DNA from: a candidate division WOR-3 bacterium
GTDB taxonomy: Bacteria; Hydrothermota; Hydrothermia; LBFQ01
Length of the DNA stretch: 64,000 nucleotides
Assembly: GCA_039802605.1 (NCBI GenBank)
Contig: JBDRWW010000002.1
Span: 224,001-288,000, forward strand
Direction of reading: 5' to 3'
The translations under genes were made by a program, and so were the position numbers. Of the stretch, positions 50,417-55,618 are shown one piece after another (the first letter of the stretch is position 1; each line of letters opens with the position of its first letter). Under the pieces are notes generated by a model. It searched no databases. It worked only from the letters and a program-made list of their open reading frames with translations, and was not told the origin of the DNA.

Positions 50417-50442
50417 ATTAAACCCCAGTAAAATATCCACTC

Positions 50443-50515
50443 GGGCGGTTAGCTCAGCGGTGAGAGCACCGGTCTTACAAACCGGGGGTCGGAGGTTCGA
50501 ATCCTCCACCGCCCA
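50443..50515 (+). tRNA. tRNA-Val(TAC), CCA not encoded
   Basis: GGGCGGT acceptor, AGCTCAG D-arm, ccggt-ct-TAC-aa-accgg, GGTTCGAATCC T-arm, discriminator A. Confidence 0.96.
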
Positions 50516-50516
50516 T

Positions 50517-50798
50517 TTGGTAGGCGATATTGTAATAAAAATTGACGAGAAAGCGGTAGAATTTATAAAAGAAAAGGGTGGAAGGGTTTGGGTTAAAATC
50601 GTTTGCATAAGTGGATGTTGCGGATTGGAGGGGTTTGAACCCCAATTCTCGTTTAATGAGGAAAGTGGGGATTGGGTTGAGTACGATTACGATGGTATAA
50701 AGGTCTATCTGCATCCGAGCATTTTAAGGTTTAGGAAATTGGTTATAGGGCTTCAAAAGGTTTTTGGGTTTAAGAGTTTAATGGGATATGTCGCTTAG
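50517..50798 (+). CDS. HesB/IscA-like small protein with CxxGCC motif
   Basis: IKIDEKA.EFI...CISGCCG...DGIKVY; TTG at 50517 is the only plausible standard start outside the tRNA. Confidence 0.7.
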   Translation: MVGDIVIKIDEKAVEFIKEKGGRVWVKIVCISGCCGLEGFEPQFSFNEESGDWVEYDYDGIKVYLHPSILRFRKLVIGLQKVFGFKSLMGYVA

Positions 50799-51977
50799 CC
50801 TTTTTGCCACAATGCCCACGCATATCATTAAGGGTGCTATGTGGATGTAGTATATAAGGATTGTTGTTGTCAGGGAAGTTATTAAAAAGGATGTAAAGAG
50901 CAGTAATGTGAAAAAGGCAAAATCATCCTTCCTGAGAACCCCTTTTAAAACAATCGCAAAGGAGTATATTAAAAGGGCAAGATATATAGTAAAACCAAAA
51001 ATGCCCATTTTCCAAAGCACGGTAATAAAAGAGCTATCAACAAAATTCACGATTTTTCCTTCTATCCACCTCGTCAGCATATCAAATTCCGTTTGCCCAA
51101 AAAAGGGACTTAGATAAAACCTTTGGAAAGCCAAAGAGTAGTCGTAAATCCTTATTTGCGCCGCGGGGTCGTATATGGTTTCGGAAGGGGTAAAAAGCGT
51201 TGAGATTCTCAAAAAAACATATATTAAAAACGCATATCCAAACATCGCGTATCCCATACCCAAACCCAACAAACCGGTTATGGAAAGGGTTCCAAATGCG
51301 TTTATGATATAACTTTTAATACTTTTACCCTTAAAAGCCGCATATATAAAAATTAAAGCGGTTAAAACGCCTAAGGATATATAGTTTGTCCTATTTCCGA
51401 ACAAAACAATGCAAACCAACGAAATAAACGCCGCAAGAAAATACAAAATCTTCCTTATCCCACTTTTTTCCTCGGACATCAAATAAACGGAAATCGCAAA
51501 TATGAAGGGCGTATAGAACACATTCCTATAACCAAACCGAAATGTGGGGTTATACTCTTTGAAAATATCAACTATGATTTCTAAAAGTATAAACACGCTT
51601 GAAGCCATAAAAATAAAGGGTAAAACTTTGGGAACCTCCCTTTTATCCGCAAATATTCCGAGGAAATAGGAAGCAAACAAAAAAGGTATAAACCTGTGCT
51701 CGTCCAATCTTAGGGTTTTTTCCAAACCAAGGGCGCTTATGATGGAAAGTATATATGTCATCAGGAACGCGATTACCAAATAATTTAAAATGTTATCCCC
51801 CTTGGGTAAAGGTAAAAATGCCAAGTTCCAAAAAATGCCAAAAAATACGATAAATATAATAAAATAAACCACCAAAACCGCTCTATATCCGAAAACCTCG
51901 GAGGGATGGGGGTTTATTAAGGCCAAAAATAATACGGTTAAGGGTATTAAGTTTTCAATTCGTCGTAAGTTCCCCAT
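50778..51977 (-). CDS. O-antigen ligase / Wzy-like membrane protein
   Basis: Multi-TM; GNRT, AQIR, SPFFG, DS.F...LWKMGIFG; start uncertain. Confidence 0.7.
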   Translation of the reverse strand: MGNLRRIENLIPLTVLFLALINPHPSEVFGYRAVLVVYFIIFIVFFGIFWNLAFLPLPKGDNILNYLVIAFLMTYILSIISALGLEKTLRLDEHRFIPFLFASYFLGIFADKREVPKVLPFIFMASSVFILLEIIVDIFKEYNPTFRFGYRNVFYTPFIFAISVYLMSEEKSGIRKILYFLAAFISLVCIVLFGNRTNYISLGVLTALIFIYAAFKGKSIKSYIINAFGTLSITGLLGLGMGYAMFGYAFLIYVFLRISTLFTPSETIYDPAAQIRIYDYSLAFQRFYLSPFFGQTEFDMLTRWIEGKIVNFVDSSFITVLWKMGIFGFTIYLALLIYSFAIVLKGVLRKDDFAFFTLLLFTSFLITSLTTTILIYYIHIAPLMICVGIVAKRLSDISH

Positions 51978-53533
51978 ACTTCCCTCAAAGCATCGGATAT
52001 CTCCCCCAGCGTTGCCCCCTCTTTTGCGCATTCAAAAATATAAGGCATAAGGTTTTCGGAGGTTTTTGCCTTTTGTTTTAAAGTTTTAAGGGCTTCTAAG
52101 AAGCCCCTACCCCTTCTGGATTTATATTCCTTTACCCTTCTCCTCTGCTCCTCTTGAACCTCTTCGGGTAGGGTAAAGATCTCTATTTTTTGCTCCTCAA
52201 ATTTATCGGATTTAAAGGCATTTACACCAACCACCACCCTTTCCCCACTTTCCACTTCCATTTGATATTTGTACGCGCTTTCCTCTATTTCCTTTTGGAA
52301 AAACCCCATTTTTACGGCCTCTACTGCTCCCCCAAGGGAATCAATCTTATCCAAATATTCCCAAACCCGGTTTTCTATTTCGTTTGTAAGGCTCTCTATG
52401 AAATATGAACCGGCTAATGGATCCACCGTATCGGGTATATCCGTTTCATATGCTATTATTTGCTGCGTTCTTAGGGCCAACAACACGGATTGTTCCGTTG
52501 GTAGAGAAAGGGCTTCATCGTAGGAATTGGTATGTAGGGACTGGGTTCCCCCGAGAACGGCGGCCAGGGCTTCAATTGTCGTTCTTATGATATTGTTTAA
52601 GGGTTCCTGGGCAACCAAGGATGAACCGGCGGTTTGCGTATGAAACCTTAACATCATACTATTCGGGTTTTTGGCTTTAAAGCGCTCTTTCATTATCTTG
52701 TACCAAATCCTCCTCGCCGCTCTAAACTTTGCAATCTCTTCAAAAAAGTTTATCTGGGCGTTGAAGAAAAAGGAAAGTCTTGGTGCAAACTCATCAACAT
52801 CCATTCCCCTCTTTAAAACCTCTTCAACATACGCGATGGCATCCGCAAATGTAAATGCCAATTCCTGTACGGAATTCGCCCCCGCCTCCCTATAATGATA
52901 CCCCGATATTGATATGGAATTCCACTTTGGCATGTGCTTTGCCGCAAATTCTATTATATCACCCACGAGTCTCATCGACGGCTCTACTGGATAAATGTAA
53001 TTCCCCCTTGCCGCAAACTCTTTTAGTATATCGTTTTGAACCGTTCCCGATAGGTTTTTTCTGTTTGCACCTTTACCCTCCGCAACGAGAGTGTAAAAGG
53101 CCAATATTATACCCGCCGTAGCGTTTATGGTCATAGATGTTGAAACCTTTTCCTGATCTATAAACTCAAACACCTCTGCCATATCCTCAATTGTTGAAAT
53201 TGAAACCCCCGTCCTCCCTATTTCCCCTTCCGCCATTGGATGGTCGGCGTCGTATCCCAGTTGAGTGGGTAGATCAAAGGCTAAGGAAAGTCCGGTTTGC
53301 CCTTGGGATAAGAGATATTTAAACCTTTCGTTTGTCTGTTTTGCCGTACCAAAACCCGCATACTGCCTCATCGTCCAAACCTTTCCCCTATACATATTGG
53401 GATATACCCCCCTCGTGAAGGGTGGTTGTCCGGGGAGTCCAAGGGCTTCTTTGGGATTAAAATCCTTTAAATCCTCTTCGGTATAAACCTCTTTAAATTT
53501 GTATCCAAATGTGGTTTCAAACTTCTTTTTCAT
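51947..53533 (-). CDS. Methylmalonyl-CoA mutase, substrate-binding (large) subunit
   Basis: PFTRG.Y, WTMRQYAGF (Tyr points to MCM rather than ICM), AFDLPTQ, QNDILKE, GGTQSLHTN; no B12-binding domain. Confidence 0.92.
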   Translation of the reverse strand: MKKKFETTFGYKFKEVYTEEDLKDFNPKEALGLPGQPPFTRGVYPNMYRGKVWTMRQYAGFGTAKQTNERFKYLLSQGQTGLSLAFDLPTQLGYDADHPMAEGEIGRTGVSISTIEDMAEVFEFIDQEKVSTSMTINATAGIILAFYTLVAEGKGANRKNLSGTVQNDILKEFAARGNYIYPVEPSMRLVGDIIEFAAKHMPKWNSISISGYHYREAGANSVQELAFTFADAIAYVEEVLKRGMDVDEFAPRLSFFFNAQINFFEEIAKFRAARRIWYKIMKERFKAKNPNSMMLRFHTQTAGSSLVAQEPLNNIIRTTIEALAAVLGGTQSLHTNSYDEALSLPTEQSVLLALRTQQIIAYETDIPDTVDPLAGSYFIESLTNEIENRVWEYLDKIDSLGGAVEAVKMGFFQKEIEESAYKYQMEVESGERVVVGVNAFKSDKFEEQKIEIFTLPEEVQEEQRRRVKEYKSRRGRGFLEALKTLKQKAKTSENLMPYIFECAKEGATLGEISDALREVWGTYDELKT

Positions 53534-54474
53534 AGGAATAGTTGGCTTACAGAGCCACCTTTATGTATCCTCTTTATAGCCTCGGCCAAGAGCTGTGATA
53601 TGTCAAGGGTTATGATTTTGCTGGGTAATTCTTTGTTATGGTTAATGGTATTTGTTATAACCACGCTTTCCGCCGGGCAGTTTGCTAACTTTTCAAGGGC
53701 ATCGCCGGAGAACAATCCGTGGGTTGCCATTATTATAATCCTGTTTGCACCCTCGTTTTTTAAAGCAAATGTGGCGTTTGAAATGGTTGTAGCGGTATCA
53801 ATTATATCGTCTATGAGCAAAACATTTTTCTCCTTAACATCCCCTATAACCCTTACAACTTCGGCAACATTGGGTTTTGGTCTCCTCTTATCAATTAATG
53901 CAATGGGTAAATTCCAAAGTTTTTCGGCAATGGTCCTTGCCCTCTTTATTCCCCCAACATCCGGAGAAACTATTATCCATTCATCCGGATTTAAACCCAA
54001 TGGAAACTCGGATTGTAAATACCTTTTAAATATTGGGGTGGCATAGAGGTTATCCACGGGTATATCAAAAAAACCCTGGATTTGATCCGCGTGTAAATCA
54101 ACGGTTAAAACCCTGTCAAAACCCGAAGATTCAACGAGTTTTGCGATGAGTTTGGCGGATATCGGAACCCTCGGTTTATCCTTTCTATCCTGACGGGCAT
54201 ATCCAAAATACGGAATCACGGCGGTTATTCGGGCGGCAGATGCCCTCCTCGCCGCATCCGCCAAAAGCAAAAGTTCCAATATGTTTTCCGCCGGTGGATT
54301 TGTCGATTGAATTATAAAAACATCATCCCCCCTAACGCTTTCCTCAATTTGTACGAAGATTTCCCCATCCGCAAACCTGCTAACCGTATGCTTTGTCGGT
54401 TCTATACCCAACTCTTCGCATATACCAAGCATTAAATTCCTATTTGAATTACCCCCAAGTATTTTGATTTCCAA
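53530..54474 (-). CDS. prs: Ribose-phosphate pyrophosphokinase
   Basis: FADGE, PYFGYARQDRK, DLHA.QIQGFF, SPDVGG, DKRR, DDIIDT. Confidence 0.97.
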   Translation of the reverse strand: MEIKILGGNSNRNLMLGICEELGIEPTKHTVSRFADGEIFVQIEESVRGDDVFIIQSTNPPAENILELLLLADAARRASAARITAVIPYFGYARQDRKDKPRVPISAKLIAKLVESSGFDRVLTVDLHADQIQGFFDIPVDNLYATPIFKRYLQSEFPLGLNPDEWIIVSPDVGGIKRARTIAEKLWNLPIALIDKRRPKPNVAEVVRVIGDVKEKNVLLIDDIIDTATTISNATFALKNEGANRIIIMATHGLFSGDALEKLANCPAESVVITNTINHNKELPSKIITLDISQLLAEAIKRIHKGGSVSQLFL

Positions 54475-54475
54475 A

Positions 54476-54562
54476 CGGAGAGGGTGGGATTTGAACCCAC
54501 GAGGGGCTTACGCCCCTACGCGATTTCGAATCGCGCCCCTTCGGCCGCTCGGGCACCTCTCC
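54476..54562 (-). tRNA. tRNA-Ser(CGA), CCA not encoded
   Basis: GGAGAGG acceptor, cgcga-tt-CGA-aa-tcgcg, long variable arm, GGTTCAAATCC, discriminator G. Confidence 0.96.
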
Positions 54563-54622
54563 GTAAAGCGAATATTTTAAAGTCGTAAATATTAATGCCA
54601 TCACCCCCTTAAAATTCCCGTC

Positions 54623-55618
54623 TTGCCGGTATCCGTAATAATTCCCGTTAGAAACGAAAGGGATAACATAATGGGTGTAATTGACAGCGTAAAGGGGGCG
54701 CTAAAAAATTCCCAATTGAATTTTGAAATCGTTATTGTTGATGATAACTCTACGGATGGGACATATGAAATTTTAAAGGGGTTGGAAGACATTAAACTTA
54801 TCAGGATTACCGAAAAACCCCAAACGGCCGTTGGGAAAAATTTCGCTTTATGGAAGGGTTTTAAGGTATCAAAAGGGGATGTGTTGCTCTTTTTGGATGC
54901 GGATGTTAAACTTGAACAAAGTTCATTGGAAAGAATACTTCCATTTTTAAGGGATTACGACTTGGTTTCCGTAAGTCCAAGACAAGAAACGGGTTCTCCC
55001 TTTGAGGCTTCTTTACAACCCTTTGTTTTTAAATTTTTATCTTCAATTTATCCCCTTGAAAGGATTAAAGACCCCAAGAGTTCGGTGGCGGCGGCAAACG
55101 GACAGTTTATACTCATTAAAAGGGGGGTTTATGAGAAGGTTTGCGGGCATAAGGCGGTTATATCGCAAATATTGGAAGATGTGGAATTCGCGAGGAATGT
55201 TAAATTATCGGGTTTTAGGATACTACTTTTAAACGGGAAGGATTACGGGGTAAGGTGTAGGATGTATAAGGGTTTTAAAGATCTGATAAACGGATGGTCA
55301 AAAAACCTGTTTCTTCTATCTTACAAAAAACTCTATTTACCTTTGACCTTTGGATTTATGCACCTGTTTGAAGCCTTGGCAATAGTGTTTTTAACGGTTT
55401 ATTTTGCATTTGTGGGTGAATACGGCTTAGCCTCCGGGGTTTTTCTTTTGGGTAATTTGTACACATTTTACGCATTCCGAAACCATTACCAGTTCTATAC
55501 GGTTATACACTTATTGGTGGGCTCATTGTTGTTTATATTTGTCTCTCTGAGGTCATACTATTGGATTAAGTTTAAAGGTGCGGTCTATTGGAAGGGTAGA
55601 TGGGTAAAAATACATTAA
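54623..55618 (+). CDS. GT2 glycosyltransferase (carotenoid/hopanoid glycosyltransferase-like)
   Basis: IIPVRNE, VDDNSTDGT, GKNFA, FLDADV, AANGQF, EDV, RMY...GWSKN, C-terminal WKGR. Confidence 0.82.
   Translation: MPVSVIIPVRNERDNIMGVIDSVKGALKNSQLNFEIVIVDDNSTDGTYEILKGLEDIKLIRITEKPQTAVGKNFALWKGFKVSKGDVLLFLDADVKLEQSSLERILPFLRDYDLVSVSPRQETGSPFEASLQPFVFKFLSSIYPLERIKDPKSSVAAANGQFILIKRGVYEKVCGHKAVISQILEDVEFARNVKLSGFRILLLNGKDYGVRCRMYKGFKDLINGWSKNLFLLSYKKLYLPLTFGFMHLFEALAIVFLTVYFAFVGEYGLASGVFLLGNLYTFYAFRNHYQFYTVIHLLVGSLLFIFVSLRSYYWIKFKGAVYWKGRWVKIH

Follow-up and report, generated by a model that had tools for sequence, protein, structure and literature searches.

Start codons set against tRNA 3' ends in a candidate division WOR-3 bacterium point to tRNA excision as a probable source of near-leaderless mRNAs

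Introduction

How does a messenger RNA (mRNA) obtain a translatable 5' end when its start codon stands one nucleotide behind a transfer RNA (tRNA) gene? This question is raised by a 64,000-nt stretch of the genome of an uncultured, thermophilic candidate division WOR-3 bacterium (Hydrothermota; GenBank assembly GCA_039802605.1, contig JBDRWW010000002.1, positions 224,001 to 288,000 of the forward strand; hereafter the window), in which a tRNA-Val gene and a tRNA-Ser gene are each followed by a single T and the TTG start codon of a protein-coding gene. The assembly of this genome (G000) comprises 1.65 Mb in 23 contigs and is 90% complete. A preliminary description of the locus, made from the sequence alone, had proposed that RNase Z releases near-leaderless UUG mRNAs from these tRNAs. 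Comparison of the two junctions with the remaining tRNA genes of the genome, with related genomes, and with the inventory of processing enzymes indicates that near-leaderless mRNAs made by tRNA 3' excision are probably the best explanation of the arrangement.

Two tRNA genes lead directly into TTG-initiated genes

The two junctions are built from the following elements:

50429..50434, plus strand: -10-like box (TAAAAT) located 8 nt ahead of position 1 of tRNA-Val
50443..50515, plus strand: tRNA-Val(TAC), called by ARAGORN, CCA not encoded, discriminator A at 50515
50516, plus strand: single-T spacer after tRNA-Val, +1 of the Y-T-T trailer, whose +2 and +3 are supplied by the start codon with its first two bases
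50517..50798, plus strand: CC/Se-motif family (seleno)protein gene, 93 amino acids (aa), TTG start (NF041239)
54574..54579, minus strand: -10-like box (TAAAAT) located 11 nt ahead of position 1 of tRNA-Ser
54476..54562, minus strand: tRNA-Ser(CGA), CCA not encoded, discriminator G at 54476, ARAGORN frame corrected by one base
54475, minus strand: single-T spacer that separates the discriminator from the prs start codon, read from the sequence; Y or YT in 9/9 genomes of the family
53530..54474, minus strand: prs (ribose-phosphate diphosphokinase), 314 aa, TTG start (NF002320, Pribosyltran_N)

ARAGORN reports exactly two tRNAs in the window, Val(tac) at 50443-50515 (+) and Ser(cga) at 54475-54563 (-). 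The former also matches RF00005 with 76.8 bits (G000:C2:274443-274515), and its 3' end, ...CACCGCCC-A(50515), runs on into T(50516), TTG(50517-50519), and G. The 3' end of tRNA-Ser was placed by counting 19 nt from the first T of its T-loop and by acceptor pairing; both registers allow seven acceptor pairs, and that of 54562..54476 gives a T at position 8 and a G discriminator, G73 being the usual discriminator of tRNA-Ser. Downstream of G(54476), the tRNA-Ser strand continues with T(54475), TTG(54474-54472), and G. The junction given in the preliminary description, namely discriminator, one T, and TTG, with no CCA, Shine-Dalgarno (SD) motif, or terminator, is confirmed at both tRNAs, as is a TAAAAT box upstream of each (50429-50434; 54579-54574), and the end it placed at 54476 is borne out by the register of tRNA-Ser. 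The box of tRNA-Ser forms part of a promoter-like pair, ATGGCA-16-TAAAAT, at 54601-54574 in a consensus scan, and such scans returned no promoter-like or terminator-like site within either window tRNA or at either junction.

Each tRNA contains an in-frame stop codon, and each TTG is the first ATG, GTG, or TTG after that stop. In the prs frame, the stop is a TAA at 54510-54508 within tRNA-Ser, and the next canonical start after the TTG is an ATG at codon 15. The encoded Prs protein, with the predicted N-terminus M-E-I-K-I-L-G-G, matches NF002320 (428.2 bits, cut-off 297), TIGR01251 over its full length with residues 3-313 on profile positions 1-308 of 309, and Pribosyltran_N with residues 3-118 on positions 1-117, and since the family match begins at residue 3, the prs start does not lie further downstream. 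For the 93-aa open reading frame (ORF), the TTG is the sole canonical start, and residues 6-88 align with positions 2-86 of NF041239 (54.8 bits, cut-off 40). No Pfam family, HesB/IscA-type included, matches this protein (50517-50798) at E<=0.001, and the earlier label "HesB-like" is accordingly replaced by the NCBIfam name, CC/Se motif family (seleno)protein. Judged from reading frames and protein families, the TTG codons at both window junctions are real gene starts.

Start codons abut most tRNA genes of the genome

The genome carries 46 tRNA genes, none of which encodes CCA (0/46), and one transfer-messenger RNA (tmRNA) gene. Abutment was defined as a same-strand ORF of at least 50 aa with its first start codon at +1 to +13, corresponding to a spacer of 0-12 nt. 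Although only two cases had been visible before, measuring the distance from every tRNA 3' end to the next start codon gave an abutting ORF behind 35/46 tRNAs (binomial P ~2e-19), compared with 5/46 in a mirror test at tRNA 5' ends, 13.3% at random positions, and 15.8% at random positions followed by YTT. Spacers are 0 nt (one case), 1 nt (12), 2 nt (4), 3 nt (9), 4 nt (2), and 5-12 nt (7), such that the discriminator and the start codon are separated by 0-4 nt in 28/35 junctions and by 0-1 nt in 13/35. The start codon is TTG in 23 cases and ATG in 12, and TTG accounts for 21% of first starts genome-wide; the G that follows TTG at both window junctions is not conserved across the 35.

The tRNA trailer is itself strongly patterned, with a pyrimidine at +1 behind all 46 tRNAs and YTT behind 40/46, against a background of 6.6%. 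This trailer is present also at tRNAs without a gene behind them, indicating that it belongs to the tRNA rather than to the ORF. Among the 11 non-abutting tRNAs, four lead into a further tRNA of a cluster and one into tuf, and the others have no such ORF. The tuf gene lies behind tRNA-Gln(CTG) with a 19-nt spacer containing the SD motif AAGGAGGT and an ATG at +20, and it is the only gene downstream of a tRNA with a clear SD.

For the 33 abutting ORFs outside the window, Pfam matches at E<=1e-4 were obtained in 26 cases and none in seven, and in 15 of the 26 an N-terminal domain begins at residues 2-10 and at profile positions 1-8. These 15 comprise L28, MurA, an epimerase, a QueD-type PTPS, a PurB-type lyase, Asd, a GFO/IDH/MocA oxidoreductase, a copper-ATPase HMA domain, a 2-hydroxyacid dehydrogenase, Rrf2, Nudix, L33, AhcY, patatin, and PdxT. 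No functional theme is evident among the genes behind tRNAs, which include ribosomal proteins, cell-wall, amino-acid, purine, and respiratory-chain functions, and regulators. The specific coupling of prs, as supplier of phosphoribosyl pyrophosphate (PRPP), and of a redox protein to tRNA maturation, which had been suggested from the window, is not upheld, since the design serves about 35 unrelated genes.

In addition, tRNA-Ala(TGC) (G000:C14:15408-15479, -) and tRNA-Ile(GAT) (G000:C8:32190-32263, -) stand alone in this genome, although they are usually located in ribosomal RNA (rRNA) spacers, and a 718-aa ORF with a peptidase S49 domain starts at +6 behind tRNA-Ala(TGC).

Promoters lie ahead of the tRNAs rather than ahead of the genes

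A TAWAAT box is found within 30 nt upstream of 41/46 tRNAs, mostly as CCTTATAATA and 8-16 nt from tRNA position 1; of the five tRNAs that lack it, four are internal to a cluster of five tRNAs. Upstream genes lie 14-170 nt from the tRNAs, with the promoter in the gap. Ahead of the abutting genes themselves, a TANNNT hexamer at -17..-10 from the start codon occurs in 0/35 cases, this region being the G+C-rich acceptor and T stem, and an SD-like motif at -17..-4 likewise occurs in 0/35. In a rough set of 1568 ORFs used for all genome-wide promoter and SD figures, TANNNT starting at -14..-11 precedes 405/1568, and SD-like motifs at -17..-4 are present in 19%, compared with 13.5% for a control region. 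A pattern search of the assembly did not find the end of 16S rRNA that carries the anti-SD sequence, its 3' end.

Within the same ORF set, TAWAAT peaks at -15..-12 from start codons (94, 121, 52, and 51 ORFs, vs 0-10 at most other offsets), a distribution from which the organism appears to rely largely on promoter-made leaderless or near-leaderless messages. With an assumed E. coli-like promoter geometry, 0-3 nt would precede the start codon of such messages, which is in the range of the 0-4 nt that a cut behind a tRNA would leave. The CTTATAAT box is also found upstream of two other stable RNAs, the tmRNA (G000:C1:330004-330374, -), which has a TTA trailer and no abutting ORF, and the RNase P RNA (G000:C11:7865-8270, +), downstream of which come TATAAT, 8 nt, and a GTG start codon.

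The junctions are conserved in the family and graded across the lineage

The prs junction, in the form tRNA-Ser(CGA)-Y-TTG or tRNA-Ser(CGA)-YT-TTG, is present in 9/9 genomes of the family, across which Prs identity ranges from 73 to 100% and codons 2-6 vary. The nearest named record is a Candidatus Caldipriscus metagenome-assembled genome (MAG), whose Prs is 88% identical. The murA, rpmB, and ahcY junctions are kept within the genus, and the CC/Se gene follows tRNA-Val(TAC) as discriminator-Y-TTG in four of the five genus genomes having the gene, even where its N-terminus differs. In G003, the CC/Se gene has no tRNA and is preceded by CTTAAAAT, 8 nt, and ATG, and this swap suggests that a tRNA end and a leaderless promoter are interchangeable for the gene. 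In the sister family, prs lies behind tRNA-Ala(TGC), with an in-frame TTG 8-9 nt after the discriminator in three genomes, and the prs of one member (G005) has a TAAAAT box 12 nt ahead of an in-frame ATG.

The rate of abutment is 35/46 (76%) in the window's genome and 11 of the 28 tRNAs examined (39%) in G007, which belongs to another genus of the family. It amounts to 4/33 in the sister family (G005) and to 6/46 in 29 loci from other families and classes of the phylum, where at least two of the ORFs concerned run over the next tRNA.

Two further observations concern prs. In G007, a 3.4-kb same-strand stretch (G007:C27:13764-17112, -) contains tRNA-Ser(CGA), prs, a beta-CASP ribonuclease gene, and tRNA-Gly(GCC), which are unlinked in G000. 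In prs loci from other phyla (L045-L123), including Proteobacteria, Acidobacteriota, Bacteroidota, and others, a tRNA-Gln(TTG) is located on the same strand within a few hundred nucleotides upstream in 46/79; a tRNA before prs is thus widespread, with longer spacers.

Processing enzymes encoded in the genome

An RNase P RNA was detected (211.6 bits), as were two PolyA_pol-family nucleotidyltransferases of 385 and 456 aa, both scoring under the equivalog cut-offs, which we take to be a CC-adding and A-adding pair as in Aquifex. RNase Z (TIGR02651) gave no match at E<=0.001 in this 90% complete genome, in which five candidates were scored, and the cut-off of the model was passed by 0/13 genomes of the order and 0/41 of the phylum. 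RNase Z-like matches at E<=1e-5 occur in 34/34 genomes of other classes of the phylum and in 0/6 other genomes of the window's class (G018, G025, G032, G038, G044, and G049), which are 98-100% complete; the tRNAs seen in this class also lack an encoded CCA. Of the two genes that the preliminary description had asked to be confirmed, cca is represented by this putative pair, below the equivalog cut-offs, and rnz was not found. Its assignment of the cut to RNase Z is not supported by these searches.

Searches for RNase E/G and RNase J genes in G000 were likewise negative, and those for RNase Y (G000:C4:112817-114328, 635 bits) and for RNB-family exonucleases (two genes) were positive. Four proteins with a metallo-beta-lactamase (MBL) fold are encoded, one of which, a 434-aa beta-CASP ribonuclease (G000:C8:20128-21426), is a plausible candidate for the endonuclease. 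Its distribution at first seemed to track family (6/8 genomes of f1, 0/4 of f2); beta-CASP ribonucleases are found, however, in 28/40 other genomes of the phylum that lack the architecture, and also in Aquificae and Archaeoglobus, so that this pattern is uninformative. A UPF0173-type MBL hydrolase of 220 aa is encoded on G000:C11. A short RNase Z-like MBL protein (231 aa) was considered as the cutter and set aside as too patchy, being present in only 3/13 related genomes and not in G000; these proteins of about 230 aa, with an HPHGDH motif, are encoded at G003:C46:15522-16214, G008:C43:14243-14944, and G005:C134:3171-3854.

A proposed role of the tRNA as a removable leader, and the alternatives

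The genomes directly display the architecture, its statistics and conservation, the absence of alternative signals, an RNase P RNA, and CCA-type enzymes. Given real gene starts, no SD or promoter of their own, promoters ahead of the tRNAs, and a spacing of 0-4 nt, tRNA 3' excision is the most economical source of the mRNA 5' end. In the sequence of events that we propose, a strong consensus promoter (CTTATAAT or TAAAAT) would drive a unit that opens with a short 5' leader and a CCA-less tRNA, continues with a Y-U-U trailer, and passes without a gap into a gene or operon. The tRNA would serve as a removable leader, its own 5' end being trimmed by RNase P, and an endonuclease measuring from the tRNA body would cut at the discriminator or no more than 1-2 nt from it, after which the two nucleotidyltransferases would add CCA. 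The downstream piece would then start 0-4 nt ahead of its start codon and enter a leaderless route of translation. TTG would be favoured at the junctions because its first two bases can coincide with the trailer's obligatory U-U. Each tRNA gene is a sole copy, so the 3' end must be made at the discriminator in any case, and with a spacer of no more than 0-1 nt at 13 junctions, only an exact cut would be useful. Co-transcription, the cut and its position, the enzyme, and translation of the product are what we infer from this arrangement. The processing-made near-leaderless UUG mRNAs of the preliminary description are thereby retained as the best explanation of the architecture and the absent signals, and RNase Z as the enzyme is not supported.

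Several points weigh against excision. Leaderless initiation in model bacteria strongly prefers a 5'-terminal AUG, and 23/35 junction starts are TTG. The junction starts are themselves deduced from homology. No known enzyme for a precise 3' cut was found, RNase Z, RNase E/G, and RNase J being absent from the searches of the 90% complete genome, and if exonucleases such as the two RNB-family enzymes make the tRNA 3' ends, the mRNA would be consumed. Seven RNA runs were found, and four of them were compared with the locus, two as raw-read metatranscriptomes and two as contigs. The raw-read metatranscriptomes yielded no reads (0 in both, with about 3/100 of each run read), and the two contig runs gave short exact pieces in the CC/Se gene, prs, and other genes, none of them across a junction. 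Contigs in these runs that match the tRNAs continue into unlike sequence, and hence derive from other organisms; the runs weigh in neither direction. PMC11696919 is among the metatranscriptome studies that reportedly include the lineage.

The lack of an identifiable RNase Z invites a looser scheme, in which tRNA and gene are co-transcribed and each transcript has one of two fates, yielding protein when it is cut imprecisely, for example by RNase Y, or used uncut. The enzyme inventory, with RNase Y (635 bits), two RNB-family exonucleases, and no RNase Z-type gene found, agrees with this, as does Propionibacterium acnes, which lacks tRNase Z according to PMC3848588 and yet cuts its CCA-less tRNAs on the 3' side and matures them. 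Under this scheme, however, the conserved Y-U-U and the start codons pressed against the tRNA are left unexplained, since the 5' end would be irrelevant, about 35 housekeeping genes would hang on a wasteful route, and at the 13/35 junctions leaving 0-1 nt any useful cut would have to be exact anyway; we consider it unlikely. Less probable still is initiation by ribosomes on an uncut precursor that retains its tRNA, with the folded tRNA acting as a cap-like or positioning structure at the 5' end. Such a structure would account for the fixed short distance and would need no extra nuclease, and nothing direct speaks for it; however, the 46 genes are sole copies of each tRNA and their products need to be released, the known structure of the ribosome suggests that a folded, G+C-rich tRNA 0-4 nt before the start would sit in the mRNA exit path of the 30S subunit, and the CC/Se gene of G003 manages with a plain leaderless promoter.

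Transcription could also begin within the tRNA genes, and promoter-driven leaderless genes are indeed common in G000. Yet the TANNNT count of 0/35 at -17..-10, where the G+C-rich acceptor and T stem lie, and the lack of a promoter-like site inside either window tRNA make independent internal promoters very improbable, and no promoter signal was found there for the transcription start sites inside tRNA genes that had been named as a possible refutation of the processing model. Chance or mis-called starts in a compact genome would find some footing in the 792/1531 same-strand gene pairs (52%) that overlap or lie at most 12 nt apart, and in the ease with which a T run gives TTG. This explanation is hardly credible in view of 35/46 against 11-16% in controls, the N-terminal family matches, the prs junction in nine genomes, and abutment at background level in other families and classes (4/33, 6/46).

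Genomic context of the two window units

Two further genes belong to the surroundings of the window junctions:

51947..53533, minus strand: methylmalonyl-CoA mutase gene (PF01642, 741 bits)
54623-55618, plus strand: family-2 glycosyltransferase gene, TTG start at 54623 (PF00535 from residue 4)

The ATG of the mutase gene overlaps the prs stop codon by 4 nt (ATGA, 53530-53533), and the tRNA-Ser unit is therefore probably an operon that includes prs and the methylmalonyl-CoA mutase gene and would be co-transcribed. A 417-aa membrane-like ORF without a Pfam family (50778-52031, -) follows, giving the likely operon order tRNA-Ser, prs, mcm, and the 417-aa ORF. Its 3' end overlaps that of the CC/Se gene by 21 nt (50778-50798), so that the two tRNA-led units converge with no terminator between them. 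The glycosyltransferase gene is divergent from the tRNA-Ser promoter and shares its intergenic region (54610..54625); with TAAAAT (54610-54615), 7 nt, and TTG, it is a promoter-driven near-leaderless TTG gene and provides a comparator within the window.

Relation to known systems

The tRNA punctuation of animal mitochondrial transcripts was reportedly set out by Ojala, Montoya and Attardi in 1981. According to PMC10941002, tRNA excision in animal mitochondria is thought to free leaderless mRNAs that are translated without an SD. As in mitochondria, tRNA genes of the window's genome adjoin protein genes with zero to a few nucleotides between them, although on the 3' side only. Unlike mitochondrial tRNAs, they have their own promoters (41/46), and the upstream genes keep a distance of 14-170 nt; the tRNA thus heads a unit as its leader instead of punctuating a long polycistron, and the layout departs from one in which few promoters serve long polycistrons and each tRNA has genes on either side. 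Further differences are that the organism is a free-living bacterium, that an RNase Z/ELAC2-type gene was not found, that most messages would keep 1-4 nt, and that stop codons are complete.

The E. coli thrU-tyrU-glyT-thrT-tufB operon uses the promoter of its tRNAs to transcribe a protein gene located after them. The present units resemble such operons in placing the protein gene behind a tRNA promoter, and tuf behind tRNA-Gln(CTG) represents the classical form with a spacer and SD (19 nt with AAGGAGGT), whereas both are missing from the 35 abutting genes. In Actinobacteria, the Deinococcus-Thermus group, and archaea, leaderless mRNAs are promoter-made according to PMC4633059 and PMC4681348. 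With these the arrangement would share a start codon at or within a few nucleotides of the 5' end, and it shares the lack of an SD, and a -10 box just upstream of 405/1568 ORFs shows that the promoter-made type is represented in the same genome; the tRNA-led 5' ends, in contrast, would come from RNA processing and carry a 5'-monophosphate instead of arising by initiation. Comparable precursors are a tRNA-Lys in the 5' untranslated region (UTR) of Thermococcus kodakarensis TK0306 and plant precursors of tRNA and small nucleolar RNA (snoRNA) that are cut by RNase Z, as described in PMC4247193. There, too, a tRNA is co-transcribed ahead of a functional RNA and released by tRNA-processing enzymes, but these cases are isolated and leaderless mRNAs are not demonstrated in them, whereas three quarters of the tRNA genes are involved here. 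In the literature searched, which left most subscription journals outside its scope, no description of this arrangement in bacteria was found.

Implications

Taken at its widest, the pattern may mean that this free-living thermophilic lineage independently evolved a mitochondria-style use of tRNAs, in which about 35 housekeeping genes or operons gave up their own promoters and ribosome-binding sites in favour of tRNA promoters and of an exact cut behind the discriminator, made by a structure-measuring endonuclease unrelated to RNase Z, so that tRNA supply and core metabolism would be tied to one set of promoters; we put this forward tentatively, as a possibility about which some doubt is warranted. 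The excision reading also predicts a missing enzyme: tRNAs of the class are CCA-less and RNase Z is not detectable in it, yet at 13 junctions the cut would have to fall within a window of only 1-2 nt. The intermediate stages found in the lineage, from 12-13% abutment in other families and classes through 39% in a sister genus to 76% here, indicate that the evolution of the arrangement is traceable. Annotation is affected as well, in that gene callers looking for an SD or a spacer will set the starts at such junctions wrongly. If excision is the source of these messages, dozens of essential messages of a bacterium would owe their translatable 5' end to RNA processing and not to transcription initiation, a situation accepted for mitochondria and described for no free-living bacterium in the literature searched.

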